Source: an uncultured Clostridia bacterium
GTDB taxonomy: Bacteria; Bacillota; Clostridia; Christensenellales; Borkfalkiaceae
NCBI GenBank assembly: GCA_944341075.1
Contig: CALVLV010000004.1
Coordinates: forward strand, 3,829 to 67,828
DNA length: 64,000 bases
Direction of reading: 5' to 3'
Shown: piece by piece, positions 5,764-41,279 of the stretch
How positions within the stretch are numbered: position 1 is the first letter of the stretch
Layout: each line of letters opens with the position of its first letter
The notes under the pieces: model-generated
The model's input: the letters and a program-made list of their open reading frames with translations, nothing else
What the model was told of the DNA's origin: nothing
The model's database searches: none
Position numbers and translations under genes: made by a program

Positions 5764-6086
5764 GCTTGAGAAACCAGGGTCTCGTGCGGCGTGCGGTAAA
5801 TTACCGCCGCACTCGGTCACCGCTCGCACTTTGCACTTTGTGCTCGCTCATTTCACAACACGCAAACAGCGCGTATGTGCTGTTTGCAGAAATGTGTTGT
5901 TCAACTCTTCGCGCGACTTTTAAGGGCCCACGAATATATAGTCGCGCGAATTCCCTTCCGGTGCGCGAGGGCTTTTGCCCGCTGCCCTGCCGAGGGTTCC
6001 CTTCGGGAAACGGCAGAACTCGCTTGCGCGACAAATTGGGTCGCGCTGGCGCAGGGGAACCCTGCTTGCGCCGTAATTTATTTAAT
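5764..6086 (-). repeat. Composite interspersed repeat, type I long form (H-proximal end on the left)
   Basis: Order on the + strand: M2 GAGAAACCAGGGTCTC (5768-5783), then core hairpins (5784-5905). The core hairpins are GTGCGGCG..CGCCGCAC and GCAAACAGC-GCGTATGT-GCTGTTTGC. Next come the L hairpin (5908-5952), GC-rich stems (5953-6072) and the AT-rich terminus GTAATTTATTTAAT (6073-6086). Positions 5768-6040 match the reverse complement of 40961-41233 with only 6 mismatches by my hand alignment. Confidence 0.9.
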
Positions 6087-6107
6087 ATAATTTCACACTT
6101 TCCGCAC

Positions 6108-6176
6108 GCGCCCTTGCCTCCCTTGCCAAAGGAAGGTGGCTTAACTGAACAAAGTGAAGTTAAGTCGGTGGGATTT
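6108..6176 (+). repeat. X module copy 1
   Basis: GCCTCCCTTGCCAAAGGAAGGTG, then the hairpin GCTTAAC..GTTAAGT, then CGGTGGGATTT. Same architecture as 24097-24173, and in reverse at 40827-40909, 54484-54552 and 59108-59188. Confidence 0.7.
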
Positions 6177-6220
6177 TTTGTGTTGCTATGTTTTTCAAAC
6201 TATTGTTCATATAATAATAT

Positions 6221-6868
6221 ATGGAAAATTTTTCTTACGCGCACCGCGATACTTCGGGCATGGCAAGGTGGAACACGCCGCGCATACCCGAAAGCCTTCA
6301 GGCCGTGCGCCAAAGCGCTTTCGGGCGCGAGATACCCATATCGGGCGATGAAACGCTGTCGTTTTTAATGGCTCAGGCGGCGGCGATAAAGCCTGATAGC
6401 ATACTCGAACTTGGCACGGCGGTGGGCGTAACTTCTGCCGCAATGCTGCTTGCATGCCCTGCGGCGCAGCTTACCACCGTAGAGCGCGACCATGCATTTT
6501 TTGAAGAGGCAAAAAATACCTACCATATGTGCGGCCTGCAGAGCAGGGTGCGCGCAATAGAGGGCGACGCGGGCGAAGTTATATATGCGCTCAGCGGCCC
6601 CTTCGATATGATATTTTTAGACTGCGCCAAGGTGCAGTACGTAAAGTACCTGCCCCGCTTAAAGCAGCTGTTAAGTGCTGGCGGCGTGCTGATCGCAGAC
6701 GACGTGCTGCTGTACGGCTGGGCGAGCGGCGAGGCCGAAGTGCCCAAAAAGCGCCGCATGCTGGCAAAGCACATAGAGGAGTACCTTGTTGCAGTCACGT
6801 CCGATCCCGAACTTTTCACCTCGGTGATAAAGGTGGGCGACGGCATTGCCCTTTCGGTAAAGCGCTGA
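6221..6868 (+). CDS. Class I SAM-dependent O-methyltransferase, YrrM/TrmR-like
   Basis: 215 aa with ILELGTAVGVTS (SAM motif I), DMIFLDCAK and GGVLIADDVLLYGW. The size and motifs fit family-3 O-methyltransferases. A U32 peptidase gene follows, as in B. subtilis yrrM-yrrNO. Confidence 0.8.
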   Translation: MENFSYAHRDTSGMARWNTPRIPESLQAVRQSAFGREIPISGDETLSFLMAQAAAIKPDSILELGTAVGVTSAAMLLACPAAQLTTVERDHAFFEEAKNTYHMCGLQSRVRAIEGDAGEVIYALSGPFDMIFLDCAKVQYVKYLPRLKQLLSAGGVLIADDVLLYGWASGEAEVPKKRRMLAKHIEEYLVAVTSDPELFTSVIKVGDGIALSVKR

Positions 6869-6940
6869 GCGCATATTATTTTGTATGTGGCGCATGCGCC
6901 TGCCTTTCGCGGCTTTGCCTATACAACTGTATTTTTGAAC

Positions 6941-8143
6941 ATGAAGAACGTTGAACTACTTGCCCCCGCGGGCAACTTTTCAAAACTTAAAACTGCCGTA
7001 TATTTCGGCGCGGACGCCGTATACTTAGGAGGAAAAGACTTTTCCCTTCGCTCGTTTGCCGACAACTTTTCGCGCGAGGAGCTTGTGCAGGCGGTAGAGT
7101 ACGCGCATGCGCTGGGCAAAAAGGTGTATGTCACCGTGAACATATACGCCCGCAACGCCGACCTTGCAAATATGGAGGACTATTTTGCCTTTCTGCAGTC
7201 GGCGGGGGCAGACGCGGCGCTCATCTCCGACCCCGGCGTGCTGTATGCCGCAAAAAAGGCGGCGCCCGAACTTGCCGTGCATATCTCCACCCAGGCCAAC
7301 GTAACCAACAAGTACGCCGTAAAATTCTGGCATGAACAGGGCGCAGAGCGCGCCGTGCTCGCCCGCGAACTTTCGCTTGCAGAGATTGCAGAAATACACG
7401 ACTTTGTGCCCGAAATGCAGCTTGAGGCCTTTGTTCACGGCGCAATGTGCATATCTTATTCGGGCAGGTGCCTGCTTTCCGACTATCTTGCGGGCAGGCC
7501 CTCCAACCGCGGCGAGTGTGCGCAGGCGTGCCGCTGGAACTATGCCGTGAGAAAGAGCGACGATAAGAGCGACAGCGGCTGGCTGCCGCTGGAAGAGGAC
7601 GAAAGGGGCGCATATATATTCAATTCAAAGGATCTGAATATGTCTGCCCACCTTGAAGATATGGCCGCCGCGGGCGTGTGCTCCTTCAAGATAGAGGGGC
7701 GCATGAAGAGCGAATATTACCTTGCCACCGTTATAAACGCCTACCGCAGGTGCATAGACGGCGGCTTTACGTCCGAGGTCGAGCGCGAGCTTTTGACCGC
7801 CGCCCACCGCGACTATACCACGGCCTACGCCCTCGGCGAAAATCATGCCACGGTAAACTATTCCAACAGCCAGACCAAGGGCGACTGCGACTACATAGGC
7901 AACGTTCTCGGCTATAAAGGCGGCTTTGCAAAGATAGAGATGCGCGGCCGCTTCTATGCGGGCGATACGCTGGAAGTGCTCTCCCCTACAGATAACTTTG
8001 GCAAGAGCTTTAAGGTGGAGGAGGTGTACGACTCGGAGGGAGTGCCCGTTTCCGACTGCAAGCGCGTGCAGGAGATATACTCAGTGCGCTGTCCCTATGC
8101 GCTTTCGGCAGGCGATATCGTCCGCCGAAGAAAACAGGCGTAA
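6941..8143 (+). CDS. Peptidase U32 family protein (TrhP/YrrO-like)
   Basis: MKNVELLAPAGNFSKLKTAVYFGADAVYLGG is the canonical U32 N-terminus, and the Cys-containing segment GECAQACRW is present. The ORF is open from 6881, but U32 proteins start at the M-x-x-ELLAPAG position, so ATG 6941 is preferred. Confidence 0.85.
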   Translation: MKNVELLAPAGNFSKLKTAVYFGADAVYLGGKDFSLRSFADNFSREELVQAVEYAHALGKKVYVTVNIYARNADLANMEDYFAFLQSAGADAALISDPGVLYAAKKAAPELAVHISTQANVTNKYAVKFWHEQGAERAVLARELSLAEIAEIHDFVPEMQLEAFVHGAMCISYSGRCLLSDYLAGRPSNRGECAQACRWNYAVRKSDDKSDSGWLPLEEDERGAYIFNSKDLNMSAHLEDMAAAGVCSFKIEGRMKSEYYLATVINAYRRCIDGGFTSEVERELLTAAHRDYTTAYALGENHATVNYSNSQTKGDCDYIGNVLGYKGGFAKIEMRGRFYAGDTLEVLSPTDNFGKSFKVEEVYDSEGVPVSDCKRVQEIYSVRCPYALSAGDIVRRRKQA

Positions 8144-8271
8144 GCTTTGGCAATTTTTTAATCGGGTGTGCGCGCACACATGTGCACGCATGCGCATTTA
8201 TGCAAAAGGGCGGCACATATGCCGCAAATAACGTTGGTTTATGCCGCGTTCAGACCAATAAAAGGTGTGTT

Positions 8272-9492: not shown

Positions 9493-9537
9493 TAGTTCGG
9501 GCATATTGCGCCCCATTTTACTGCAATCATCATACAC

Positions 9538-9562
9538 GGCGCCGCTTTTGCGGCGCCTTTTT
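9538..9562 (+). terminator. Rho-independent terminator of aroA
   Basis: GGCGCCGC-TTTT-GCGGCGCC followed by TTTTT. Confidence 0.85.
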
Positions 9563-10685: not shown

Positions 10686-10689
10686 CGGC

Positions 10690-12046: not shown

Positions 12047-12238
12047 GTAAAATTAAATTAATAAAAGTCGCAAGGCGGGTTTCCCGCCGCAGCAGGCCCC
12101 CATTTGCGCATACCTGCGCCTCAGCAGGGTGAATGGCGAAGATTATATAATCGTAGGCCCTTAAGTATCTTCGCCAGAGGGGCTGGCCCTTAAAAGTCAC
12201 GAAATTTTTCGTTTTCGGCCAAAACGAAAAATTTGTGA
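12047..12238 (+). repeat. Composite interspersed repeat, type I short form
   Basis: AT-rich terminus AAAATTAAATTAAT (12049-), stem GGCGGG-TTT-CCCGCC (12075-12089) and L hairpin (12131-12175; stem GGCGAAGAT/ATCTTCGCC, loop TATATAATCGTAGGCCCTTAAGT). These are followed by the G palindrome (12177-12191) and H (12197-12238). It is the mirror image of 21628-21815. Confidence 0.9.
12197..12238. repeat. H hairpin copy 2
   Basis: TCACGAAATTTTTCGTTTTCGGCCAAAACGAAAAATTTGTGA. Confidence 0.9.
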
Positions 12239-12344
12239 ATAATATTAAATGGTCGCGCGCGAGTGCAAACAAAGGGCGGAATATGTATAACTTCTGCTTA
12301 TACCAAGCATAAAAAGTTGCTAAATTCAATGGTGTTCATATCGT

Positions 12345-18879: not shown

Positions 18880-18997
18880 ATCATAGAACTGTAATTTTTC
18901 CCGTTTGAGGCGTGTCGGGGCGCCGACGGCCTGAACGGGCCGCAAATTGCGGCTACTCGATCAATTTTGGCGGAGCTTCCGCCACGGAACAAAAGTT

Positions 18998-20116
18998 ATG
19001 TTTACTGATACCAACAATTTTCCCCTTGAAGGGGAGGTGCGCATACCTTCGGGCTGCGCCGTAAGCGCCATTATAGACCGCAGCGGCGGCAGAATGACGG
19101 GCGAAAAGATAATACGCTCCATCGCCACCATGCACGACAGGTCAAACGGCCTGGGCGGCGGCTTTGCAGGCTACGGCATATACCCCGACTATAAGGACTA
19201 TTACGCCTTTCACTTGTTCTTCGACGACCGCATTGCGCGCAAGGAGACGGAAGATTACCTTGCCGCCCACTTCGAGGTGGTGTATTCCTCGGAGATGAAG
19301 ACCAGAAAGGTGGCGGGCATAAAGGGCGAACCGCTTATATTCCGTTACTTTTTATACCCTCTTTCAAAGCGCCTTGCCAACTCCCTGCTCGATGAAGAGC
19401 AGTATGTGGTGCGCTGCGTAAACAGAATAAATACCGACATAAAGGGTGCCTTTGTATTTTCCAGCGGCAAAAACATGGGCATATTCAAGGGCGTGGGCTA
19501 CCCGGAAGATATAGGCAGGTTTTACCTTTTGGACGAGGAGTACGAAGGTTACATGTGGACTGCCCACGGCAGGTACCCCACAAACACCCCCGGCTGGTGG
19601 GGCGGCGCGCACCCCTTCGGGCTTTTAAGCTATTCGGTGGTGCACAACGGCGAGATCTCCTCTTACGACGCCAACAGGCGCTATATAGAGATGTTCGGCT
19701 ACAAGTGCAACCTGCAGACCGATACCGAGGTAATAACCTACATAATCGACTTTTTGCTGCGCGTTAAAAAGCTGACGCTGGAAGAGGTGGCAAAGGTGAT
19801 TTCCGCCTCGTTCTGGTCTACCATAGAGGACAAGAGCGAAGACGACAGGCGGCAGGAGACATTCCTGCGCAAGGCCTTCCCTTCGCTGCTCATAAACGGC
19901 CCGTTCTCCATAATCTTCGGGTACGAAGGCGGCATGATGGCGCTCAACGACAGGCTCAAGCTGCGCTCTATGGTGTGCGCCGAAAAGGGCGACCTTGCCT
20001 TTGTATCTTCTGAAGAGTGCGGCATAAGGGTGATCCAGCCCGAACTTGACAGCATTTTTGCGCCTGCGGGCGGGCAGCCCGTAATATATACCCTGCGGGA
20101 GGGCGCCGAAATATGA
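18998..20116 (+). CDS. Class II glutamine amidotransferase domain protein (stand-alone glutamate synthase domain 1)
   Basis: RIPSGCAVSAI (candidate nucleophile Cys), HDRSNGLGGGFAGYG, WTAHGRYPTNTPGWWGGAHPF and VVHNGEISSY. The start is uncertain: ATG 18998, ORF open from 18947, or a GTG just before RIPSGC. Confidence 0.8.
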   Translation: MFTDTNNFPLEGEVRIPSGCAVSAIIDRSGGRMTGEKIIRSIATMHDRSNGLGGGFAGYGIYPDYKDYYAFHLFFDDRIARKETEDYLAAHFEVVYSSEMKTRKVAGIKGEPLIFRYFLYPLSKRLANSLLDEEQYVVRCVNRINTDIKGAFVFSSGKNMGIFKGVGYPEDIGRFYLLDEEYEGYMWTAHGRYPTNTPGWWGGAHPFGLLSYSVVHNGEISSYDANRRYIEMFGYKCNLQTDTEVITYIIDFLLRVKKLTLEEVAKVISASFWSTIEDKSEDDRRQETFLRKAFPSLLINGPFSIIFGYEGGMMALNDRLKLRSMVCAEKGDLAFVSSEECGIRVIQPELDSIFAPAGGQPVIYTLREGAEI

Positions 20117-21618
20117 AAGATATGTTTATACCCGCCGAGTACGAGGTGGTGCGCAACCCCGACCTGTGCATAGCGTGCAGGGTATGCGAAAGGCAGTGCG
20201 CCAACGAGGTGCATAAGTTCGACAGCGACCTCGGCAAGATGATAGCCGACAGCACAAAGTGCGTAAACTGCCACAGGTGCGTATGCATGTGTCCCACGCA
20301 CGCTTTAAAGATAGTCAAGAGCGACGATACCTACAAACTCAACGGCAACTGGCCGATGAGGACTATGAACGAGGTATACAGGCAGGCCGCAACGGGCGGC
20401 GTGCTGCTCTCGTCCATGGGCAACCCCACCGAAAACCCCATATATTTCAGCAAGATACTTTTAAATGCCTCGCAGGTGACCAACCCGCCCATAGACCCGC
20501 TGCGCGAGCCCATGGAAACGGCGGTATACCTGGGCAAAAAGGACGTGGAGATAAAGAGGGACGCCCGCGGCATGCTGGTGGATAACCTTCCCCCTCAGCT
20601 CAAGCTTACCACGCCCATAATGTTCTCCGCCATGAGCTACGGCTCCATATCCTACAACGCGCACGAATCTCTCGCCCGCGCCGCGGAGGAGCTGGGCATA
20701 TACTACAACACGGGCGAAGGCGGACTGCACAGCGACTTTTATAAATACGGCAAAAACACCATAGTTCAGGTGGCATCGGGCAGGTTCGGCGTGCACGAAC
20801 AGTATTTAAAGACCGCCGCCGCCATAGAAATAAAGATGGGCCAGGGCGCCAAGCCCGGCATAGGCGGGCACCTGCCCGGAATGAAGATCTCGGACGACGT
20901 TTCAAAGACGCGCATGATCCCCAAGGGCGTAGACGCCATTTCACCCGCGCCCCATCACGACATATATTCCATAGAAGACCTCCGCCAGCTTATATACAGC
21001 CTTAAGGAGGCAACGGCATATACAAAGCCCGTAATAGTAAAGGTTGCCGCCGTTCATAACGTTGCGGCCATCGCCTCGGGCATAGCGCGCAGCGGCGCCG
21101 ATATCATCGCCATAGACGGCTACCGCGGCGGCACGGGCGCGGCTCCCACGCGCATACGCGACAACGTGGGCATTCCCATAGAGCTTGCGCTCGCCCAGGT
21201 AGATGAACGCCTCCGCCAGGAGGGCATACGCGACAACGTCTCCGTGGTGGTGGGCGGCTCTATACACTCCAGCGCAGATGTGGTAAAGGCAATAGCGCTC
21301 GGCGCCGACGCCTGCTACATAGCCACAGCGGCAGTGCTTGCACTCGGCTGCCACCTCTGCCGCAGCTGCCATTCGGGCAAGTGCAACTGGGGCATAGCAA
21401 CCCAGCGCCCCGACCTTGTAAAAAGGCTCAACCCCGACGTGGGCAAACAGCGCCTTGTAAACCTCGTCCACGCCTGGACGCACGAGATCCAGGAGATGAT
21501 GGGCGGCATGGGCATCAACTCTATAGAGGCCCTTCGCGGCAACAGGCTCATGCTCCGCGGCGTCGGCCTGAACGAGACGGAGTTGAGGATACTCGGCATC
21601 AAGCACGCCGGCGAATAA
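20113..21618 (+). CDS. Glutamate synthase FMN-binding domain protein with an N-terminal 2x[4Fe-4S] ferredoxin module
   Basis: CIACRVCERQC and CVNCHRCVCMCP, followed by the GltB domain-2 motifs GEGG, KMGQGAKPGIGGHLPG and IAIDGYRGGTGAAP. There is a 4-nt ATGA overlap with the preceding CDS. Confidence 0.9.
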   Translation: MKDMFIPAEYEVVRNPDLCIACRVCERQCANEVHKFDSDLGKMIADSTKCVNCHRCVCMCPTHALKIVKSDDTYKLNGNWPMRTMNEVYRQAATGGVLLSSMGNPTENPIYFSKILLNASQVTNPPIDPLREPMETAVYLGKKDVEIKRDARGMLVDNLPPQLKLTTPIMFSAMSYGSISYNAHESLARAAEELGIYYNTGEGGLHSDFYKYGKNTIVQVASGRFGVHEQYLKTAAAIEIKMGQGAKPGIGGHLPGMKISDDVSKTRMIPKGVDAISPAPHHDIYSIEDLRQLIYSLKEATAYTKPVIVKVAAVHNVAAIASGIARSGADIIAIDGYRGGTGAAPTRIRDNVGIPIELALAQVDERLRQEGIRDNVSVVVGGSIHSSADVVKAIALGADACYIATAAVLALGCHLCRSCHSGKCNWGIATQRPDLVKRLNPDVGKQRLVNLVHAWTHEIQEMMGGMGINSIEALRGNRLMLRGVGLNETELRILGIKHAGE

Positions 21619-21627
21619 AAAAAGTTT

Positions 21628-21669
21628 TCACAAATTTTTCGTGCGGGCCGCGCCCGAAAAATTTCGTGA
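21628..21669. repeat. H hairpin copy 3
   Basis: TCACAAATTTTTCGTGCGGGCCGCGCCCGAAAAATTTCGTGA. Begins 9 nt after the stop at 21618. Confidence 0.9.
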
Positions 21670-21815
21670 GTTTGGGAGAGCCAGCTCTCCCTTGCCACGA
21701 TTTTTTAAGGGCCCCCGATAATATAATCGGGGCAATTCCCTCTTTGGTGAGCCTGCTGACCGCAGCAAATTGGGTCTTGCGGCGGCGGGAAACCCGCCTT
21801 GCAAACGTAAATTGT
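21670..21815 (-). repeat. Composite repeat, type I short form (mirror of 12047-12196)
   Basis: G palindrome GGGAGAGCCAGCTCTCCC (21674-21691), reversed L hairpin (21692-21738), the GCGGCGGGAAACCCGCC stem, and the terminus ..GTAAATTG. Confidence 0.85.
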
Positions 21816-21827
21816 TCTATGTAATAA

Positions 21828-21865
21828 TTGTCATTTCGACCGAGCGACAGCGAGTGGAGAAATCT
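21828..21865 (+). repeat. S module copy (TTGTCATTTCGACCGAGCG..GGAGAAATCT)
   Basis: TTGTCATTTCGACCGAGCGACAGCGAGTGGAGAAATCT. The same module occurs at 26810, 35969, 40717, 49917, 54261 and in reverse elsewhere. Confidence 0.85.
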
Positions 21866-21877
21866 ATTCCGCAATAC

Positions 21878-21950
21878 AGTCTCCTCTGATAGGAGAGGTG
21901 GGTAGCACGAACTTTAGCGAGGGCTACCTGGTGGGATTTGTGCTCGCATC
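21878..21950 (+). repeat. X module copy 2
   Basis: CTCCTCTGATAGGAGAGGTGGGTAGCACGAACTTTAGCGAGGGCTACCTGGTGGGATTT. It is nearly identical to the reverse complement of 59120-59175. Confidence 0.8.
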
Positions 21951-22080
21951 TCCAAATTTTTTGCGCCGTGTTTTCATTGTTGCAAAAATACAAACGGTTA
22001 CGGCTTATTGCCGCGTAAATTGCAATCAAACCCTCGTTAGAGAGCCGAGGGGAAAAATATAATCATAAGGATTTTTAACT

Positions 22081-23361
22081 ATGCTTACAAGTATCTGTGG
22101 TATCAACTGGGGCGACGAAGGCAAGGGCAGAATGGTTGACCTGCTTTCGCGCGATTTCGACATAGTCTGCCGCTATCAGGGCGGCAACAACGCCGGGCAC
22201 ACCGTAATCAACGAAAGGGGTAAGTTTATTTTAAATCTGCTCCCTTCGGGCATCCTGCGCGAAGAGGTGGTAAACATTCTCGGCTGCGGCATGGTCATCG
22301 ACCTCAAGCACCTGTGCGGCGAAATTGAAAAGCTGCGCAGCGCAGGCATAAAGATCACGCCCGAAAATCTGAAGATAAGCGACAAGGCTGTAATCACCAT
22401 GCCCTACAACGTGCTGCAGGACGTTATGGAAGAAGACAGGCTTTCAAAGGCGACGGGCAAGCCCTACGGTTCTACGCGCCGCGGCATTGCGCCCGTATAT
22501 GCCGATAAGTACATGAAAAAGGCCTTCCGCATGGGCGAACTTTTAAACACCAAGCTCATGTTCAGGCGTCTGCCCGATATAGTCGCATGGAAAAACCTCA
22601 CCGTCACCGCATACGGCTACGACCCCGTAAAGGTGGAGGACATGGAGGACTATTTCCGCACCTACGGCGAACCTTTAAAGGAATTTATAACAGATACGGG
22701 CGTATACCTCAACGAGGCGCACAAGGCGGGCAAAAAGATAATGTTCGAAGCCCAGCTGGGTGCCCTGCGCGATATCGACTACGGCATCGTTCCCTATACT
22801 TCAAGCTCCTCTACCATAGCCGCTTACGCGCCCATAGGCGCGGGCGTGCCCAACTTAAAGCTGGATAAGTCCATAGGCATAATGAAGGCTTATTCAAGCT
22901 GCGTGGGCGCCGGCCCCTTCACATGCGAATACTTCGGCGAGCAGGCCGAAAGGCTGCGCGAACTGGGCGGAGAATATGGCGCCGCTACGGGCAGGCCCCG
23001 CAGGGTGGGCCCCTTCGACGTAGTTGCCTCGCGCTACGGCATACGCTGCCAGGGAGCGGACGAGATAGCGCTCACCAAGCTGGACGTGCTCGACGACTAT
23101 GAAGAGATAGAGATCTGCACGCACTACGAGCTGGACGGCAAAAGGCTGGACGAGTTCCCCTTCACCGATGTGCTCGACTACTGCAAGCCCGTGTTTGAAA
23201 AGGTCAAGGGCTGGCACTGCGACATAAGCAAGTGCAGAAAGCCCGAAGACCTTCCCAAAGAGGCGCTCGACTACATAAAACTGCTTGAAAAGCTGTGCGA
23301 TTGCCGCATACGCTATGTTTCGGTGGGCGCCGAACGCGAAGCGTGCATAAAGATGTATTGA
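22081..23361 (+). CDS. purA: Adenylosuccinate synthetase
   Basis: NWGDEGKGRMVDLL, YQGGNNAGHTV and TGRPRRVGPFD are present, and 426 aa fits. Confidence 0.95.
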   Translation: MLTSICGINWGDEGKGRMVDLLSRDFDIVCRYQGGNNAGHTVINERGKFILNLLPSGILREEVVNILGCGMVIDLKHLCGEIEKLRSAGIKITPENLKISDKAVITMPYNVLQDVMEEDRLSKATGKPYGSTRRGIAPVYADKYMKKAFRMGELLNTKLMFRRLPDIVAWKNLTVTAYGYDPVKVEDMEDYFRTYGEPLKEFITDTGVYLNEAHKAGKKIMFEAQLGALRDIDYGIVPYTSSSSTIAAYAPIGAGVPNLKLDKSIGIMKAYSSCVGAGPFTCEYFGEQAERLRELGGEYGAATGRPRRVGPFDVVASRYGIRCQGADEIALTKLDVLDDYEEIEICTHYELDGKRLDEFPFTDVLDYCKPVFEKVKGWHCDISKCRKPEDLPKEALDYIKLLEKLCDCRIRYVSVGAEREACIKMY

Positions 23362-23442
23362 TAAATCAGCGCGGCACTTATGCGCCGCGCTGAGCGTAAT
23401 AACTTTGGCGCGTGCGCCGCGGCGGCGCGCAAGGACTTTTTA

Positions 23443-23886
23443 ATGAAAAGGATCTATGTCAACGAAGAATGGTGCCTCGGCTGCCACCTGTGCGAATACG
23501 AGTGCATGTATGCCAACTCCGGGCTGGACGCAATGTTCAAGCTCAAGGGCAGGCTGGGCGAGTTTATCCCCCGCATAAAGGTGGAGGGAGAGGACGGCGC
23601 CGATGTACATTTTGCCGTCAACTGCCGCCAGTGCTCAGACCCCGTATGCGTTAAAAGCTGCATAGCGGGCGCCCTTTCAAAGGACGAAGGCGGCATTGTG
23701 CGCATAGATAAAAACAAGTGCGTGGGCTGCTATACCTGCGTGCTCGTCTGCCCCTACGGCGCAATAATGCCCGCGCCCGACGGCAAGGCCGCGCAAAAGT
23801 GCGCCCTGTGCACGGATAATATGATGGGCGAGCCCAACTGCGTAAAAAACTGCCCCAACAACGCCATCGTCTTTGAAGAGAGGTGA
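23443..23886 (+). CDS. 4Fe-4S dicluster (ferredoxin-like) protein
   Basis: CLGCHLCEYEC, CRQCSDPVCVKSC, CVGCYTCVLVCP and CALCTD..CVKNCP cysteine clusters. AAGGA lies 7 nt upstream of ATG 23443. The ORF is open from 23380. Confidence 0.85.
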   Translation: MKRIYVNEEWCLGCHLCEYECMYANSGLDAMFKLKGRLGEFIPRIKVEGEDGADVHFAVNCRQCSDPVCVKSCIAGALSKDEGGIVRIDKNKCVGCYTCVLVCPYGAIMPAPDGKAAQKCALCTDNMMGEPNCVKNCPNNAIVFEER

Positions 23887-23896
23887 AAATATATGT

Positions 23897-23938
23897 TCAC
23901 AATTTTTTCGGTCGGGCCGCGGCCGAAAAAATTCGTGA
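23897..23938. repeat. H hairpin copy 4
   Basis: TCACAATTTTTTCGGTCGGGCCGCGGCCGAAAAAATTCGTGA. Begins 10 nt after the stop at 23886. Confidence 0.9.
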
Positions 23939-24084
23939 GTTTAAGAAACCAAGTTTCTCTTCGCGCGACCTCTAAGTGCCCACGATTGTATAGTCGCGCG
24001 AATTCACTTCCGGTGAGCCCGCTTGCGCGGCAAATTGTGTCGCGCTGGCGCAGGGGAACCCTGCTTGCGCACATAATTTATTTG
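23939..24084 (-). repeat. Composite repeat, type I without the core insert
   Basis: M2 AAGAAACCAAGTTTCTC is followed directly by the reversed L hairpin (23960-24004). Next come GC stems GCGCGGCAAATTGTGTCGCGC and GCGCAGGGGAACCCTGCTTGCGC, then the terminus ACATAATTTATTTG. Compared with 5764-6086, the 122-nt core is absent exactly at the M2/L junction. Confidence 0.85.
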
Positions 24085-24096
24085 AAAAATCTATTC

Positions 24097-24173
24097 CTTA
24101 ATCGTGCCTCCCTTAATAAGGGAGGTGCCTTAAGTGAATAAAATGAAGTTAAGGCGGTGGGATTTAAATCCCC
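24097..24173 (+). repeat. X module copy 3
   Basis: TTAATCGTGCCTCCCTTAATAAGGGAGGTGCCTTAAGTGAATAAAATGAAGTTAAGGCGGTGGGATTT. Confidence 0.8.
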
Positions 24174-24175
24174 CT

Positions 24176-24360
24176 TTGTCATTTCCCCCTTAGTAAGGGG
24201 GACTTGACCGCGTCTTTGGCGCCCTTGTGTAAAGACGAACAAGCCATTTCATAGCACAGCGGACACCCGCTGTTCGTGTGCCGTGGAGACACCTTGCTTG
24301 AAACGTTATTTATTTGAGAATAGTGGCTGCGGGGGGGGTGCGGTAAATTGCCGCCGCGCG
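24176..24360. repeat. Further repeat modules (S-like stub, M5 hairpin, terminus, M3 fragment)
   Basis: TGTCATTTC plus CCCCCTTAGTAAGGGGG. Then GACGAACAAGCCATTTCATAGCACAGCGGACACCCGCTGTTCGTG, which matches the reverse complement of 54715-54760. Then a second ..GTTATTTATTTG terminus and GTGCGGTAAATTGCCGCCGCGC, which resembles the M3 stem of 5784-5812. Confidence 0.7.
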
Positions 24361-24383
24361 CAACTAAATAAAGGTAACAGACC

Positions 24384-25616
24384 ATGAAATACGTGATAAT
24401 AGGCAATTCAATAGCCGCCACCGCTTGCATAGAGGGCATACGCTGTGCAGATAAAAAGGGTGAAATAACGGTAATTTCGGCAGAAGACCACCCGGTATAC
24501 GGTAGGCCGCTCATATCATATTGCCTGCTCGGCAGGGTAAAGCGGGAGAACATGAACTACCGCCCCGCAGACTTTTACCAAAAGAACGGCGTAAATGTGC
24601 TGTACGGCGTGCGCGCCGAAAAGATAGACGCCGCCGCAAAGACAGTTTTTCTGGGCAGCGGCGAAAAGGTGCCCTACGACAGGTTGCTCGTGGCAACTGG
24701 TTCCAGGCCGTTCGTGCCGCCCATGCAGGGGCTTGAAGGCGTAAAGGACTGTTTTTCGTTCATGACCATGGACGACATGCTCGCCCTCGAAGGCGCGCTT
24801 TCGCCCGAAAAGAATGTGCTGGTGATAGGCGCGGGCCTGATCGGGCTCAAGTGCGTTGAGGGAATACTTGCAAGGGTAAAGTCTGTCACCGTGGTAGACA
24901 TGGCGGACAGGATATTGCCCTCTATACTCGATAAGGAGGGCGCCGCCCTCGTTCAGCGCGGGCTGGAGGCAAAGGGCGTAAAGTTCGTGCTTGCAGACAG
25001 CGCCGCCCGCTTTGAAGGCAACACTGCCTATCTTAAAAACAGCGGCGCGGCAATAAATTTCGATATTCTGGTAGTGGCGGTGGGCGTGCGCGCCAACACC
25101 GAACTCGTCAAGGAGGCGGGCGGCGAAGTAAACCGCGGAATAGTGGTGGATAAGGGCATGCATACCACGCTTGCAGACGTGTATGCCGCGGGCGACTGCG
25201 CAGAGGGGTACGATAGCTCCATAGGCGCCAACCGCGTGCTGGCACTGCTGCCCAACGCATATTTCCAGGGATATACCGCCGGCGTGAACATGGCGGGCGG
25301 CATGGCCGTCCACGACGACGCCATACCCATGAACGCCATAGGCTTTTTTGAAACGCATGTGCTTACGGCGGGGACGTATGAGGGCGAAGTCATCGCCGAA
25401 ATAACCCCCGATAAATACAAAAAATTATTTATAAAGGACGGCAGGCTGGCAGGATTTATTCTTATAAACGACTTTTTGCGCGCGGGGATATACACCTCGC
25501 TCGTCAGGGAAAAGACCCCGCTTGAAGAGGTCGATCTTGAACTGCTTGAACACTGCCCGCAGCTGCTTGCATTCGGCAAGGACGCGCGCAAACACAAGCT
25601 TGCGCGAAGGGTGTAA
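24384..25616 (+). CDS. FAD/NAD(P)-dependent pyridine nucleotide-disulfide family oxidoreductase (likely electron-input subunit of the split glutamate synthase)
   Basis: MKYVIIGNSIAATACIEGIR (FAD fold), VLVIGAGLIGLKCVE (NAD fold) and VYAAGDCAE. The role in glutamate synthase is inferred from gene context. Confidence 0.8.
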   Translation: MKYVIIGNSIAATACIEGIRCADKKGEITVISAEDHPVYGRPLISYCLLGRVKRENMNYRPADFYQKNGVNVLYGVRAEKIDAAAKTVFLGSGEKVPYDRLLVATGSRPFVPPMQGLEGVKDCFSFMTMDDMLALEGALSPEKNVLVIGAGLIGLKCVEGILARVKSVTVVDMADRILPSILDKEGAALVQRGLEAKGVKFVLADSAARFEGNTAYLKNSGAAINFDILVVAVGVRANTELVKEAGGEVNRGIVVDKGMHTTLADVYAAGDCAEGYDSSIGANRVLALLPNAYFQGYTAGVNMAGGMAVHDDAIPMNAIGFFETHVLTAGTYEGEVIAEITPDKYKKLFIKDGRLAGFILINDFLRAGIYTSLVREKTPLEEVDLELLEHCPQLLAFGKDARKHKLARRV

Positions 25617-25708
25617 GTTTGTTGTTGCATAAGGGGCAGACTTTTCCCCTTACCTTACAAAATTTTACGGCGATACCTGCCCGCAGAATTTTGTGAAAGG
25701 AGTTTTAT

Positions 25709-26437
25709 ATGGAAATAAAGGTAGACGAAAACGTCCACTTTCAGGCGCTCAACCGCATTGTGCGCGAAAGTAAGGATGCCGATATAACCCTGAACGGGGT
25801 GGTGGGCCAGCGCTATATAGCCGACGGGCTTTCGGGCAAGCGCATAGTAATAAACGGCGTGCCCGGCAACGCGCTGGGAGCGTATATGAACGGCTGCGAG
25901 GTGATAGTGCACGGCAACGTGCAGGAGGCCACGGGCGACACAATGAACAGCGGCAAAATAGTCGTCTACGGCAACGCAGGCGACGCCACGGGGTACGCCA
26001 TGCGCGGCGGAAGAATATATATCCGCGACAACACAGGCTACCGCGCGGGCATCCACATGAAGGCGTATATGGACTTCAAGCCCGCAATCGTGATAGGCGG
26101 CAGGGCGGGGTCATTCCTCGGCGAATACCAGGCGGGCGGCACGATCGTCGTGCTCGGCCAGAACAAGGACGGGCTGCCCATAATAAACAACTTCTGCGGC
26201 ACGGGCATGCACGGCGGAACTATATATCTCCGCTGCAACAAGATCCCCCGCTCGCTGCCCGCACAGGTGGCTGCCGAAGGCAAATGGGGCGCAGATATGC
26301 CCGAATTATGCGAGCTGGTGCGCGACTGGTGCAACTTCTTCCCCGAATACAATGCCGACGAATTGCTTGGGCATAACTTCTTTGTGCTTACCCCCAACAG
26401 CGCCAATCCGTATAAGCAGATGTATACGAATAACTGA
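25709..26437 (+). CDS. GXGXG-motif protein (stand-alone glutamate synthase domain 3)
   Basis: Repeated beta-helix motifs GQRYIADGLSG, VHGNVQEATGDTMNSGKIVVYGNAGDATGYAMRGGRIYIRDNTGYRAG. GAAAGGAG lies upstream of the ATG. Confidence 0.9.
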   Translation: MEIKVDENVHFQALNRIVRESKDADITLNGVVGQRYIADGLSGKRIVINGVPGNALGAYMNGCEVIVHGNVQEATGDTMNSGKIVVYGNAGDATGYAMRGGRIYIRDNTGYRAGIHMKAYMDFKPAIVIGGRAGSFLGEYQAGGTIVVLGQNKDGLPIINNFCGTGMHGGTIYLRCNKIPRSLPAQVAAEGKWGADMPELCELVRDWCNFFPEYNADELLGHNFFVLTPNSANPYKQMYTNN

Positions 26438-26444
26438 AAGAGGT

Positions 26445-26486
26445 TCACGAAATTTTACGCCTGGCCGAGTCGTAAAATTTCCGTGA
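26445..26486. repeat. H hairpin copy 5
   Basis: TCACGAAATTTTACGCCTGGCCGAGTCGTAAAATTTCCGTGA. Begins 7 nt after the stop at 26437. Confidence 0.9.
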
Positions 26487-26810
26487 TTTGAGGGGCCTTC
26501 TCGCGCGGCGTGCGGTAAATTACCGCCGCGCTCGGTCACCGCAAATGCCTTGAATATGCATTTGCTCATCTCGCACCACGCAAACAGCGCGTATGTGCTG
26601 TTTGCAGAAATGTGTTGCGTCCCTCTTTGCGCAATCTTTAGTGCCCACGAAGTGTATAATTGCGCAAATTCACCCTGCTGCGCGAGGGCTTTGCCCGCTG
26701 CCCTGCCGAGGGTTCCCTTTGGGAAACGGCAGATGCGCAGGTATGCGCAAATTGTGTCCTGCTGCGGCGGCATAGCCGCCTTGCGACATTATTTATTTCA
26801 GAAAAATAAT
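26487..26810 (-). repeat. Composite repeat, type I long form (diverged paralogue of 5764-6086)
   Basis: Same module order as 5764-6086: M3 GCGCGGCG..CGCCGCGC (26503-26531), GCAAATGC..GCATTTGC, GCAAACAGC..GCTGTTTGC (26580-26605) and reversed L (26627-26670; stem TTGCGCAAT/ATTGCGCAA). These are followed by the CTGCCGAGGGTTCCC..GGGAAACGGCAG stem and the terminus ATTATTTATTT. Several stems differ from the 5.8-kb copy by paired (compensatory) changes. Confidence 0.85.
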
Positions 26811-35863: not shown

Positions 35864-35914
35864 TATAATTCGTAAACCCTTTTTATTGAAATAATATTGT
35901 GAAATATATAATCG

Positions 35915-35942
35915 GCCGCCGCGGAAAATTTTCCGCGGCGGC
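35915..35942 (+). terminator. Perfect 28-nt palindrome after malQ
   Basis: GCCGCCGCGGAAAATTTTCCGCGGCGGC. There is no strong U-run after it. Confidence 0.55.
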
Positions 35943-35968
35943 ACTTATTGCGTTTAGTTGCCTTTCTT

Positions 35969-36200
35969 TTGTCATTTCGACCGAGCGATAGCGAGCGGAG
36001 AAATCTCTGCCCAATTCTTGTCCCCCTTGTGTAAAGGGGGAATTGAAGGGGGATTGTGCCTTGTTTTGAGATTTCTCCGCAGTTTCCACGCTATGCGGGA
36101 ATCATCTGCCGTTTCCCATATGGAACCCCACGGCAGGGCAGCGGCTACGCCTCGCGCGGCAGGGGGCGTCGGCTATATCTCCTCGCGCGTGTAAATGACA
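35969..36200. mobile_element. MITE-like composite bounded by inverted TTGTCATTT termini
   Basis: The left end is TTGTCATTTCGACCGAGCGATAGCGAGCGGAGAAATCTC (an S module). The right end is ..ATATCTCCTCGCGCGTGTAAATGACAA, the inverse. Inside are the TCCCCCTT-GTGTAA-AGGGGGA hairpin, a reversed S stub GAGATTTCTCCGC (36068-) and CTGCCGTTTCCCATATGGAACCCCACGGCAGGGCAGCGG. The last of these is a variant of the stem in the type I elements. Confidence 0.6.
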
Positions 36201-38527: not shown

Positions 38528-38644
38528 ACAGCCATTTTAATGCCTGCCGCCGCGCGTTATTTTGGTGTTCGGGTCGTTTATTCGCATGTTCTGCCGCATG
38601 CCGCCGCGCGCATATGTTTTGCGGTCGAGCGGAATAAACGGGCG

Positions 38645-38689
38645 TCAAAAAACATGCGGGCGGCGCACATAGAAATGTGCGCCGCCCGC
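38645..38689 (-). terminator. Rho-independent terminator of mnmG
   Basis: GCGGGCGGCGCACAT-AGAA-ATGTGCGCCGCCCGC, followed on the minus strand by a T-run (A-run 38647-38652 on the + strand). Confidence 0.85.
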
Positions 38690-38711
38690 AAACCGCATAT
38701 AAAAATCTATG

Positions 38712-40565
38712 TCATTTTAAATAGAGTATGAGAACGGCTATGTCCGCGGGGTTCACCCCGGGTATGCGCGAAGCCTGCCCCAGCGAGGCGGGGCGCACCT
38801 TGTTCAGCTTTTCGCGCGCCTCCAGCCTCAGTCCGCCTATCTGCATGTAGTCCAAGTCCTGCGGCAGCTTGCGTTCCTCCAGCTTGCGCGCCCGCGCTAT
38901 CTGCTCCAGCCCCTTCTTTAAATAACCCTCGTACTTTACGTATATCTCTGCCGACTGTGCCGCGCTCTCGTCGCCCGCGCACACCTCACCAAAGGCGCCG
39001 CGTATCTGTTTCAAGGTCGCCCCGCGGCGAATAAAATCGGCATATGTTAGGGGCTTTTCCGTTCCGTCCATGCCAAGGCCACTTAAAAATTCGTCCGCCT
39101 CGCCCTGCGGAACGCGCGTTTCAAGCTCGCTTAAAAAGCCCTCGTAGTGCGCCTTCCTCTCAAGGTAGCGGGCGTATCTTTCCTCCGTCACCAGCCCGCA
39201 GTCGTAGCCCTTCTGCGTAAGGCGGAAGTCGGCGTTATCCTGCCGTATCTCCAGCCTGTGTTCCGCGCGCGAGGTCATCATGCGGTACGGCTCGTCCGTG
39301 CCCTTGGTCACAAGGTCGTCTATCAGCACGCCTATATACGCCTCTTCGCGGCCGAGTATCAGCGGCGGCATACCGCGCAGCTTAAGGCTTGCGTTCAGCC
39401 CCGCCATCAGCCCCTGCGCCGCGGCCTCTTCGTAGCCCGAAGTGCCGTTTATCTGCCCCGCCGTGTACAGCCCTTCCACCTTTTTAAACTCAAGGGTGGG
39501 GTAAACGTCAAGCGTGTCTATGCAATCGTACTCTATTGCATAGGCATAGCGCATTATTTCGCACTCCTCCAGCCCCGCAACGGTGCGGTACATTTCCCTC
39601 TGTACGTCGTGGGGGAGGGAGGACGACATGCCCTGCACATACACCTCAAGCGTGTCCCTTCCCTCGGGTTCAAGGAACAGCTGGTGGCGCTCCTTGTCGG
39701 CAAAGCGCACCACCTTGGTCTCTATCGAAGGGCAGTAGCGCGGCCCCGTGGAGAGTATGGTACCGTTGTACAGCGGCGAACGGTCAAGGTTGGAAAGTAT
39801 CACCTCGTGGGTGGCTGCGTTTGTATAGGTCAGGTAGCAGGGCAGCTCGTTCTTAACAGGCCCCCCTGCCATGTACGAAAAGGGCAGCACATCGTCGTCG
39901 CCGCGCTGCTCTTCGCAGCGCTCAAAGTGCACGGTGCGCCCGTCCAGCCTTGCGGGCGTGCCCGTCTTGAAGCGGCGCACGCTGTAGCCCAGCCCGATAA
40001 GGTTTTTGGTAAGGGCGGTGGCGGGGGCAAATCCGCTCGGGCCGCTGCTCTGCTTAACGTCGCCCGTTATCGTTTCGGCGTTCAGGTATACGCCCGTGCA
40101 AAGTATCGCCGCCCTGCACCCCAGCACGCCGCCATACGTAGTTTTAACGCCGCATACTTTGCCGTCTTTTGTAAGTATTTCGGCCGCTTCGCCCTGCAAT
40201 ATGCGCAGGTTATCGGTGTGCTCAAGCGTGCGCTTCATCTCGGTGTGGTAGGCGTGTTTGTCGCTCTGGCAGCGTAGTGACTGCACCGCAGCGCCCTTTC
40301 CTACGTTAAGCATGCGCATCTGCAGGGCGGTCTTATCGGCGTTTATTCCCATCTCGCCGCCCAAAGCGTCTATCTCGCGCACAAGCTGACCCTTTGCCGT
40401 GCCGCCCACCGAGGGGTTGCACGCCATAAAGGCTATGCTGTCTAAGTTCAGCGTAAGCATGCACGTCTTAAGCCCGGTGCGCGCGCAGGCAAGCGCGGCC
40501 TCGCACCCGGCGTGACCCGCGCCCACGACTACTGCGTCGAATTGTCCTTCAAAAAATTCAGTCAT
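38712..40565 (-). CDS. mnmG: tRNA uridine 5-carboxymethylaminomethyl modification enzyme MnmG (GidA)
   Basis: FDAVVVGAGHAGCEAALA, NPSVGGTAKG, YAIEYD and GQINGTSGYEEAAAQG. GAGGTGA lies upstream of the ATG. Confidence 0.95.
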   Translation of the reverse strand: MTEFFEGQFDAVVVGAGHAGCEAALACARTGLKTCMLTLNLDSIAFMACNPSVGGTAKGQLVREIDALGGEMGINADKTALQMRMLNVGKGAAVQSLRCQSDKHAYHTEMKRTLEHTDNLRILQGEAAEILTKDGKVCGVKTTYGGVLGCRAAILCTGVYLNAETITGDVKQSSGPSGFAPATALTKNLIGLGYSVRRFKTGTPARLDGRTVHFERCEEQRGDDDVLPFSYMAGGPVKNELPCYLTYTNAATHEVILSNLDRSPLYNGTILSTGPRYCPSIETKVVRFADKERHQLFLEPEGRDTLEVYVQGMSSSLPHDVQREMYRTVAGLEECEIMRYAYAIEYDCIDTLDVYPTLEFKKVEGLYTAGQINGTSGYEEAAAQGLMAGLNASLKLRGMPPLILGREEAYIGVLIDDLVTKGTDEPYRMMTSRAEHRLEIRQDNADFRLTQKGYDCGLVTEERYARYLERKAHYEGFLSELETRVPQGEADEFLSGLGMDGTEKPLTYADFIRRGATLKQIRGAFGEVCAGDESAAQSAEIYVKYEGYLKKGLEQIARARKLEERKLPQDLDYMQIGGLRLEAREKLNKVRPASLGQASRIPGVNPADIAVLILYLK

Positions 40566-40609
40566 ATTTCACCTCACAAAAATTCCCGCCTTGTGTGACG
40601 GGAATTGTT

Positions 40610-40618
40610 TGTGGATAA
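40610..40618 (-). promoter_or_regulatory. Perfect DnaA box (TTATCCACA on the minus strand)
   Basis: TGTGGATAA on the + strand. Next to it lie the tandem ATGTTGTTTTAT x2 (40627-40650) and the AT-rich tract 40619-40660. It is the only perfect box I found in 40566-42935. Confidence 0.5.
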
Positions 40619-40660
40619 CTTTTTTAAATGTTGTTTTATATGTTGTTTTATGTATTATTT

Positions 40661-40706
40661 AAGGCATATATGCGGGGCAATTTTAAAAGTGATGAGTGAT
40701 GAGCGG
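40661..40706 (+). repeat. Q module (GCATATATGC palindrome + CAATTTTAAAAGT + GATGAGTGATGAG)
   Basis: AAGGCATATATGCGGGGCAATTTTAAAAGTGATGAGTGATGAGCGGG. A longer version lies at 49783-49890. Confidence 0.75.
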
Positions 40707-40716
40707 GCTGCGTCCG

Positions 40717-40820
40717 TTGTCATTTCGACTAAGCGAATGTAATGAGCGCATGGAGAAATCTCTTTGCTTTGCCGCATTTCTTGAGATTTCTCCACTCGCT
40801 GATGCTCGGTCGAAATGACA
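40717..40820. mobile_element. Inverted pair of S modules (104-bp hairpin / MITE-like unit)
   Basis: TTGTCATTTCGACTAAGCGAATGTAATGAGCGCATGGAGAAATCTC, a 20-nt centre, then GAGATTTCTCCACTCGCTGATGCTCGGTCGAAATGACA. The termini are perfect inverted repeats (GTCATTTCGAC/GTCGAAATGAC). Confidence 0.75.
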
Positions 40821-40826
40821 GTGAAA

Positions 40827-40909
40827 GAGATTTTTGTAAATCCCACCGACACGCCCTCGCTACGCTCGTGCGTATCACCTCCCTTAATAAGGGAGGCACG
40901 ATTAAGGAA
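40827..40909 (-). repeat. X module copy 4
   Basis: GAGATTTTTGTAAATCCCACCGACACGCCCTCGCTACGCTCGTGCGTATCACCTCCCTTAATAAGGGAGGCACGATTAAGGAA. Confidence 0.8.
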
Positions 40910-40914
40910 AAATT

Positions 40915-41279
40915 TTTTAAATAATCAATGTTTCAAGCAAGGTTTCCTTGCGCAGAAAGACACAATTTGTCGCGTGAGCGAGTTCTGCCGTTTCCCGAAG
41001 GGAACCCTCGGCAGGGCAGCGGGCAAAAGCCCTCGCGCACCGGAAGTGAATTCGCGCGACTATATATTCGTGGGCTCTTAAAAGTCGCGCGAAGAGTTGA
41101 ACAACACATTTCTGCAAACAGCACATACGCGCTGTTTGCGTGTTGTGAAATGAGCGAGCACAAAGTGCAAAGTGCGAGCGGTGACCGAGTGCGGCGGTAA
41201 TTTACCGCACGCCGCACGAGACCTTGGTTTCTCAAAATCACGAATTTTTTCGGGCGCGGCCCGAACGAAAAAATTGTGA
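40915..41279 (+). repeat. Composite repeat, type I long form, including H copy 6 (41238-41279)
   Basis: Terminus TTTTAAATAATCAATGTT, GC stems, L hairpin (41048-41093), core (41097-41217), M2 GAGACCTTGGTTTCTC and H TCACGAATTTTTTCGGGCGCGGCCCGAACGAAAAAATTGTGA. Positions 40961-41233 are the inverted near-identical twin of 5768-6040. Confidence 0.9.

Follow-up and report, generated by a model that had tools for sequence, protein, structure and literature searches.

Near-identical inverted repeats behind rnj and dnaA in an uncultured gut Clostridia bacterium: probable copies of an abundant family of modular, hairpin-rich intergenic elements

The window analysed here, a stretch of 64,000 nt (64 kb), comes from an uncultured gut bacterium of the Clostridia. 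The DnaA of this species shares 76% identity with the DnaA of Candidatus Coproplasma avicola. Near the left end of the window lies rnj (3456..5717, + strand; NCBIfam TIGR00649, E = 1.7e-172), which encodes an RNase J of 753 aa; the identical protein is on record in other assemblies. A repeat begins 2 nt past the rnj stop, and downstream of it is an O-methyltransferase-like gene (6221..6868, +), with weak NCBIfam methyltransferase matches and matches to Pfam Methyltransf_3/24. Further right in the window, dnaA (41407..42759, -; 450 aa; TIGR00362, E = 5e-137) has mnmG (38712..40565, -; TIGR00136, E = 3.5e-238) downstream of it. The identical DnaA protein is present on 21 contigs; for MnmG, no record of the same protein exists. 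There are no tRNA or tmRNA genes in the 64-kb window.

A preliminary description of this DNA had claimed a near-identical inverted pair of ~270 bp. Such a pair is present, at ~98% identity and with 5-6 mismatches. The left copy is at 5768..6040 (+; placed by that description and by alignment), and the right copy is at 40963..41233 (-; placed by alignment, inverted-repeat search, and blastn). In blastn, the left block matches the reverse complement of the right block over 271 nt at 98.2% with 5 mismatches, far above chance within the window (E = 7e-119). The MAFFT alignment contains six mismatched columns (5777, 5925, 5954, 6025, 6026, and 6039), and the central ~250 nt hold three mismatches, as had been claimed. 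The uninterrupted identical runs are 147, 28, and 70 nt, the longest being 147 nt. Wider inverted arms, 5713-6042 and 40959-41288 (330 nt, 92% complementary), were obtained by an inverted-repeat search of the window. The distance between the end of the right core and the dnaA stop (41407) is 174 nt. The two copies are mutually inverted because one trails rnj (+) and the other trails dnaA (-).

Each block is part of a longer element. The left long-form element (5716..6083, +), delimited by copy alignment, nhmmer, and a covariance model (CM), is composed of H1, H2, U2, H6, U3, H7/H8, and an A/T-rich tail. The right long-form element (40919..41284, -), delimited by alignment, nhmmer, and CM, has the same orientation as dnaA. 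The basic unit of the family is ~195 nt long and consists of H1, H2, H6, smaller hairpins, and the A/T-rich tail. H1 is a long hairpin, an imperfect palindrome with an 18-20 bp stem and a conserved strand-specific extra C. In the left copy, H1 is at 5720..5763 (+; GTTCACGAAATTTT..AAAATTTCCGTGA), with the extra C in the 3' arm. H2 is a short hairpin with a C(C/A)AG loop, and H6 is a hairpin with a conserved 22-nt loop. The long forms have two extra modules nested in the core: U2, which is 125 nt long and follows H2, and U3, which is 53 nt long and follows GGT. The short forms are without U2 and U3. Across both forms, the size ranges from about 195 to 370 nt, with 6-10 hairpins.

The left element has a predicted fold of -161.7 kcal/mol (z = -7.6 versus shuffles). 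Compensatory changes are seen at 23 of the 34 predicted pairs; the stems covary, and the loops of H2 and H6 are conserved. The counts of G.T and A.C mismatches, 13 versus 9, are uninformative for picking the functional strand. H1 starts with (G)TTCAC, and the bases 5' of H1 vary among copies. In the aligned copies, terminal inverted repeats were not found, as TTCAC... at one end is not complementary to the ...ATTTATTT tail at the other, and no clear target-site duplication was seen around the whole element. The insertion point of U2 leaves at most 2-3 nt of ambiguity (CTC) as a target-site duplication. Inside the left element, a scan for promoter and terminator consensus sequences gave no hit, and 5600-6300 has no terminator-like site, that is, no G+C-rich hairpin followed by a U-run. 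The window has no Rfam match at gathering score, and the element searched at E<=10 gave only chance-level matches (E>1).

A CM search counts 12-13 family copies in the window, all intergenic. A third long-form copy (26439..26805, +; alignment, CM) starts 6 nt after the stop of a GXGXG-domain gene. Its claimed divergence holds, with 78% identity at 26443-26785 by blastn. Short-form copies on the + strand are found at 21621..21824 (CM 188 bits), 9 nt after the stop of a glutamate-synthase-domain (gltB-like) gene, and at 23891..24090 (CM 207 bits), 10 nt after the stop of a 4Fe-4S gene. On the - strand, they are found at 12048..12240, between dinB and glnA and antisense to both (CM 168 bits), at 57137..57337, downstream of a rubrerythrin gene (-) (CM 199 bits), and at 59372..59571, 2 nt after the radA stop (CM 167 bits). 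Two more short-form copies on the - strand are antisense to their flanking genes. The H1 of the one at 50313..50512 stops 11 nt short of the smc ATG (50523); that of the other, at 54841..55036, ends just before the ribosome-binding site and ATG (55050) of ftsY. A truncated short-form copy (47909..48078, -) supplies, with its H1 end, the GAGG just before the plsX ATG (48086). A solitary U2 module, 83% identical by alignment, is located at 56929..57050 (-). It is not in any short-form element, and U2 is therefore a separate unit.

Directly after the dnaA stop lies a different repeat module (41305..41406, -), composed of an H1-like hairpin and a terminator-like hairpin (41333-41315, then a T-run). 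The latter is the sole terminator-like site near the right copy. A repeat-family search of the window revealed two further copies of this module, starting at 54406 and 57037.

The position of H1 relative to genes is regular. H1 lies 0-10 nt past the stops of rnj and of the gltB-like, 4Fe-4S, GXGXG, and radA genes, as well as of three genes elsewhere in the species, and the H1-like hairpin follows the dnaA stop with no spacing (0 nt). In the opposite orientation, H1 directly precedes the SD/ATG of plsX, smc, ftsY, and the gene at 25709. In every case, H1 is turned toward the coding sequence next to it.

When a 34-mer from the core was used to scan metagenomes, at least four further copies came up at other sites of this species. 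Their identities to the left copy are 98.7% (225 nt), 97.8% (271 nt), 96.5% (199 nt), and 94.1% (186 nt). The preliminary description held all other copies to be far more diverged; this is the case inside the window, but not elsewhere in the species, where copies reach 94-98.7%. Because the genome has other equally similar copies, the pair in the window is no privileged recombination substrate. The family is species-restricted. In the dnaA loci of 80 other species, blastn with the element and a CM search over the 1.36 Mb that these loci comprise yielded a single 16-bit match and nothing convincing, and phage, plasmid, and viral collections contained no match.

The flanking genes of the compared strains differ by 0-2.6%. 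Within 5778-6024, no difference between the left and right copies is fixed across strains, and the differences at the block edges (5777, 6025/6026, and 6039+) are fixed in every strain. Strains L012 and L015 have a clustered patch of 8 changes at 5918-5948, which matches other family members. U3 is missing from the right copy in strains L001 and L007, and the module set at the right locus is wholly replaced in strains L004 and L005, where DnaA is identical. The indels between copies include the 53-nt and 125-nt modules and many small gaps, not multiples of three. The identity limited to the interior, the fixed edge differences, and the 8-change patch suggest ectopic gene conversion or module turnover. 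This evidence carries a caveat, because the within-repeat variants were read from metagenome assemblies of short reads, in which copies can become mixed. We infer that the near-identity, which covers the H2-U2-H6-U3 block only, arose by such conversion or turnover and not by transposition of the whole element. The preliminary description is supported in that the identity reflects recent copying or homogenisation.

The family is a new interspersed repeat, similar in kind to REP, BIME, BOX, and MITE sequences. REP/BIME in enterobacteria and REPINs in Pseudomonas are extragenic high-copy imperfect palindromes that form stable hairpins (PMC3116915, PMC3337134). Like them, the elements here are mosaics with other motifs, often lie just after genes, are inherited vertically, and stay within a lineage; the extragenic imperfect palindromes are here H1 and its companion hairpins, in many copies (12-13 elements per 64 kb). 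Unlike REPs, the units are much longer multi-hairpin arrays, with no GTAG-type 5' motif and no inverted REP doublets, and no RAYT (Y1 transposase) gene is present among the 40 window genes. BOX, RUP, and SPRITE of pneumococci are also modular, species-restricted, highly structured repeats in a Bacillota genome. Transcribed together with neighbouring genes and turning over slowly from strain to strain, they are judged parasitic but still able to affect expression (PMC3049150). In contrast to them, no sequence relationship was found, U2 and U3 are nested in the core instead of forming an A-Bn-C array, and H1 keeps its orientation toward the coding sequence. The elements resemble MITEs in being short, non-coding, multi-copy, and structured and in their presence/absence polymorphism, as with U3 and the replaced modules; MITEs depend on a function supplied in trans (PMC10969869, PMC3184786). 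Of the features that define MITEs, terminal inverted repeats were not found here and no clear target-site duplication was seen.

It is probable that the pair represents two copies of an abundant non-coding modular family, homogenised by conversion or module turnover, with no inversion in the sampled strains. This account draws on the observed anatomy, copy number, covarying stems, restriction to the species, module polymorphism among strains, and single gene order. The elements would be selfish non-autonomous DNA. Their spread and homogenisation would occur via recombination or a putative trans-acting enzyme, and very stable hairpins would be set at the 3' or 5' ends of messages as a side effect. 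There is no transposase or recombinase among the 40 window genes. Mobility by such an enzyme is putative: no mobilising enzyme was found in the 64 kb and the few other loci of the genome that were covered.

The abutment of H1 on stop codons and ribosome-binding sites, together with the conserved loops, could instead indicate a host function. The elements might act as structured RNA in which H1 shields messages from exonucleases, offers an RNase III site, or slows terminating ribosomes. In that case, purifying selection would account for the near-identity. In E. coli, REPs located 15 nt or less from a stop codon reportedly lower translation, according to Liang, Rudd and Deutscher in 2015. The constant facing of H1 toward coding sequence within 0-10 nt, its 18-20 bp stem, the covarying stems, and the conserved H2 and H6 loops are consistent with such a function. 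The Correia elements are a precedent, as they bind RNase III and are cleaved or protected by it (PMC2649163). Nevertheless, this explanation is rather unlikely. Copies occur in both orientations relative to transcription, and the mismatch counts reveal no strand preference. Relatives get by with ordinary terminators and dnaA-mnmG spacers of 25-60 nt, and the family was not detected in the 80 other species examined. Modules are gained or lost between strains with identical DnaA, which resembles pneumococcal BOX/RUP/SPRITE (PMC3049150).

A doubtful alternative is that a Y1/HUH transposase mobilises single-stranded DNA hairpins in a REPIN/RAYT- or IS200/IS605-like manner, with the orientation of elements following the direction of replication. 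The pair would then be inverted because its copies flank a point, somewhere at about 27-41 kb, at which replication switches direction. The imperfect palindrome of H1 with its strand-specific extra base and the lack of visible terminal inverted repeats or target-site duplications fit this idea. The orientation is + in 4 of 6 elements at 5-27 kb and always - at 41-60 kb, even beside + genes (about 8 copies, counting those that consist of H1 alone). An AT-rich 12-mer repeat and a perfect DnaA box lie at 40.61-40.66 kb, upstream of mnmG. If this alternative is true, element orientation would report replication direction, with the switch point at about 27-41 kb near the DnaA box and 12-mers, and the left-right exchange would be an origin-spanning inversion. 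However, the window genes include no Y1 transposase, no GTAG-like or other conserved target motif precedes H1, and two - copies occur in the left part of a small sample in which element orientation is confounded with gene orientation. The window also has no DnaA-box cluster and no change of skew sign. A scan allowing <=2 mismatches found a single perfect DnaA box (40610-40618) and no clustering of boxes, which gives no basis for placing an origin; dnaN is absent from the window too. Being next to dnaA is therefore not equal to being next to the origin.

There is a slim chance that the family is an undescribed class of hairpin-first modular elements, either placed by an HUH-type enzyme on single-stranded DNA or selected as modules for message-end processing.

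The preliminary description proposed that the pair could be a recombination substrate for inversion of the 35-kb interval; that the interval actually inverts, among strains or within cultures, is given little credence. The copies share 271 nt at 98%, and their 147-nt perfect run is in principle sufficient for RecA-dependent recombination. The apparent sequence exchange shows that family copies interact, and in Neisseria gonorrhoeae inversion breakpoints coincide with small interspersed repeats (PMC3454330). The Correia repeat enclosed elements of this genus, which are intergenic and about 100-150 bp long, can mark inversion breakpoints (PMC2649163, PMC3454330). Being small intergenic repeats like those here, they are the best precedent for inversion, but they have terminal inverted repeats and a TA duplication, unlike this family, and inversions at such repeats were observed between Neisseria strains, whereas none was seen here. 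At the right junction, 8 of 8 spanning contigs read dnaA-repeat-mnmG-spoIIE, although consensus assemblies are blind to a minority inverted subpopulation. At the left junction, all three distinct spanning contigs read rnj-repeat-methyltransferase, again in short-read consensus that is blind to rare inverted cells. Every spanned junction among these strains, 0-2.6% diverged, is thus parental, and neither an actual nor a recurrent inversion is supported. The order recF<>dnaA->mnmG is kept in relatives with 52-76% DnaA identity, and inversion would break the conserved dnaA->mnmG adjacency. GC skew, whether bulk, at 4-fold sites, or intergenic, has no break at either copy. Unchanged gene order in relatives and a smooth skew are outcomes that the preliminary description had named as refuting. 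In this 64-kb window, which makes a weak test, bulk skew tracks gene orientation, and at 4-fold sites a codon preference for C over G dominates the skew. Estimated from + versus - genes, the replication term keeps one sign on both sides of dnaA, and intergenic skew is about 0-0.03 throughout. Inversion between the copies is a theoretical possibility only. The flanked segment is 35 kb of housekeeping genes, and no window protein has a recombinase domain. A site-specific invertible DNA switch was rejected, with no adjacent invertase or recombinase gene in the window.

That the shared block encodes protein is most improbable: ORFs at 5760-6368 (+) and 40933-41241 (-) share a GTG start 8 nt before the core and the same frame, but the 53-nt and 125-nt module indels and small gaps are not multiples of three, for which the coding reading was rejected, the left ORF extends into the next gene, and the sequence consists of stacked hairpins that show compensatory changes.

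In a genome so rich in repeats, the pair is an ordinary outcome, and the population sampled does not use it to invert the interval. The family widens intergenic spacers to 300-900 nt, compared with about 25-60 nt in relatives, and breaks short-read assemblies at predictable places. It shows the exchange of short sequence patches between copies. Its very stable hairpins, set against the stops or ribosome-binding sites of rnj, dnaA, smc, ftsY, and plsX, could affect expression. The family is a clean case for studying the origin of such repeats in an uncultured lineage of gut Clostridia.

The repeat 3' of rnj (left copy, core 5768-6040, +) and the repeat 3' of dnaA (right copy, core 40963-41233, -) are 98.2% identical across 271 nt. 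The alignment reproduces the counts of the preliminary description: six mismatches (5777, 5925, 5954, 6025, 6026, and 6039), three of them central, with uninterrupted identical stretches of 147, 28, and 70 nt. A repeat search of the window gave arms of 330 nt (5713-6042 and 40959-41288), which are 92% complementary. The left copy begins 2 nt past the stop of rnj (3456-5717, +), and a methyltransferase-like gene starts downstream at 6221. On the minus strand, the right copy is flanked by dnaA (41407-42759, -) on its 5' side and by mnmG (38712-40565, -) and spoIIE on its 3' side; 174 nt separate its core from the dnaA stop, close to the earlier estimate of 170 bp.

The pair is not unique in the species. 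Other copies had been regarded as far more diverged, which holds for the third copy of the window (26443-26785, 78% identity) but not for four copies at three other genomic sites, whose identities to the left core are 98.7%, 97.8%, 96.5%, and 94.1%. Of these, three begin directly past a stop codon, and the fourth lies ~130 nt downstream of one, behind another repeat module. Two of the four make up a second inverted long-form pair (L106 6068-6346 and 9093-9464), 3 kb apart, each member 3' of a different gene's stop. All four come from the one sample, of the same species, that was hit when metagenomes were scanned with a 34-mer of the core; another contig of that sample is the left junction (98.8% identity).

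Searches with nhmmer and the covariance model R1, built on 13 copies, detected 12-13 elements of the family in the 64-kb window. The short form (~195 nt) consists of the hairpins H1, H2, and H6, further small hairpins, and an A/T-rich tail. H1 is an 18-20 bp hairpin (GTTCAC(G/A)AAWTTTT ... AAAAWTT(C)CGTGA) whose 3' arm has a conserved extra C; H2 closes a C(C/A)AG loop with a stem of 5-7 bp, and the stem of H6 (9 bp) carries a conserved loop of 22 nt, TTTAAGGGCCCACGATTATATA. The long forms are the left and right copies, 26439-26805, and the four copies at other loci. They contain the module U2 (125 nt) inserted 3' of H2, and most also contain U3 (53 nt) 3' of GGT. A solitary U2 is found at 56929-57050. 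RNAalifold showed compensatory double changes in 23 of the 34 predicted pairs, and the predicted fold of the left copy has an energy of -161.7 kcal/mol (z = -7.6). Mismatch counts (13 G.T versus 9 A.C) show no strand preference. There was no match in Rfam or in phage, plasmid, and viral collections, and R1 gave no convincing hit across 1.36 Mb of sequence from 80 other species. Copies of a second repeat family (GTCATTTCGACCGAGCG..GGAGAAATCTC), frequently in inverted pairs, lie among those of the main family (21828-21870, 35969-36011, 40720-40830, 49994-50082, and 54188-54360; L021 6788-6815). In contrast to the main family, this second family is also present in Candidatus Coproplasma avicola.

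H1 always faces a coding sequence. In sense copies, it starts 0-10 nt past the stops of the rnj, gltB-like, 4Fe-4S, GXGXG, and radA genes and of three genes at other loci; immediately past the dnaA stop (0 nt) there is an H1-like hairpin. At plsX, smc, ftsY, and the 25709 gene, the element has the opposite orientation, and the end of H1 lies just 5' of the Shine-Dalgarno sequence and the ATG. It is because one follows a + gene and the other a - gene that the left and right copies are inverted to each other.

The near-identity had been attributed to recent transposition or gene conversion. Five left and seven right copies from different strains were compared. Left and right differ in every strain at 5777, 6025/6026, and from 6039 onwards, and no fixed difference is seen within 5778-6024. 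The H1 and 3' hairpins of the two are only ~70-80% alike, each resembling a different family member. Changes private to the window's left copy are 5925 and 5954; 5925G is shared with one right copy and with two at other loci. In two strains, eight changes are clustered in a patch (5918-5948) resembling other family members, although such repeat-internal variants come from short-read assemblies and may partly be path mixing. The right copy is without U3 in two strains, and the entire right-locus module set differs in two strains with identical DnaA. The copies were probably inherited vertically, with ectopic gene conversion or module replacement homogenising their interior.

The preliminary description also proposed that the pair could invert the 35-kb segment beside dnaA. 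This is mechanistically possible, because small repeats can mediate inversions (PMC3454330). All the tests that could be run fell against it. The exact DnaA protein was found on 21 contigs, and the repeat-spanning ones (8/8) show recF<>dnaA-repeat-mnmG-spoIIE, with recF and dnaA divergent. The exact methyltransferase was found on 23 contigs, and the distinct repeat-spanning ones (3/3) show rnj-repeat-methyltransferase; a look-up with RNase J returned one of the same three. All are in the window arrangement, and the divergence of their flanking genes from the window is 0-2.6%. No contig places rnj beside mnmG or the methyltransferase gene beside dnaA. Many short contigs end within the repeat, as expected from short-read assembly.

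The closest genome match is Candidatus Coproplasma avicola (DnaA 76% identity), followed by genomes at 57% and 52%. The order smc-rnc-plsX-asnS-vanW-PHP-recF<>dnaA->mnmG is retained at 57%; therefore, the right junction is ancestral and not the product of a recent inversion. The dnaA-mnmG spacer is ~25-60 nt with an ordinary terminator in relatives, versus 841 nt of stacked repeat modules in the window. Bulk GC skew tracks gene orientation with no step at 5.7-6.0 kb, and four-fold-site and intergenic skew change sign nowhere in the window. The window's only perfect DnaA box (40610-40618), directly upstream of mnmG, adjoins an AT-rich 12-mer tandem repeat (TAAAACAACATA; 40600-40665) of two or three units by strain. 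This region is not clearly an origin, since the window has no DnaA-box cluster, and nearness to dnaA thus cannot be read as nearness to oriC.

The ORFs at 5760-6368 and 40933-41241, which overlap the shared block, cannot credibly be taken as genes, given the 53- and 125-nt indels between copies. The 40 genes of the window all belong to the housekeeping class, with no transposase, recombinase, or invertase among them. dnaA and recF are divergent, 176 nt apart, with mnmG downstream of dnaA on the same strand (41407-44021) and dnaN absent from the window; this unusual layout is kept in relatives at 52-76% DnaA identity. At 6195-6223, a TATAAT hexamer ends ~5 nt 5' of the ATG of the methyltransferase-like gene with no Shine-Dalgarno sequence between, and its message may be leaderless. 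RNase J has a ~200-aa N-terminal extension without family match ahead of the beta-CASP core (3456-4080). The 1093-aa ORF at 7-3288, without Pfam match, is made up of acidic Glu/Ala/Pro-rich tandem repeats (periods ~12, 141, and 174 nt), and its counterpart in other strains is 1196-1200 aa. Glutamate-synthase domains are separate genes at 18947-26437 (GATase_2, Glu_synthase, 4Fe-4S, Pyr_redox_2, and GXGXG), interrupted by purA; repeat elements lie 3' of three of them, and an H1-H2 unit occupies the spacer after a fourth. The two strains without U3 have 3.7 kb inserted between malQ and spoIIE (L001 16498-20601, L007 11769-15872; window site ~35914-35949), with coding sequences for a DivIC-like protein and a surface protein of the Flg_new/peptidase S8 type. 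The insertion site is the malQ terminator hairpin, and a copy of this hairpin is present at either end of the insertion.

REPs situated within 15 nt of stop codons reportedly offer one precedent for effects of such elements on messages. Correia elements are another (PMC2649163). The family most likely represents selfish, non-autonomous interspersed repeats restricted to a lineage, of the kind of REP/BIME (PMC3116915), pneumococcal BOX/RUP/SPRITE (PMC3049150), or MITE (PMC10969869). It has neither the GTAG motif and doublets that define REP nor the terminal inverted repeats that define MITE, and is therefore a new family of this kind. With hairpins lying directly against stop codons and ribosome-binding sites, the elements could plausibly influence message stability, RNase III processing, or termination.
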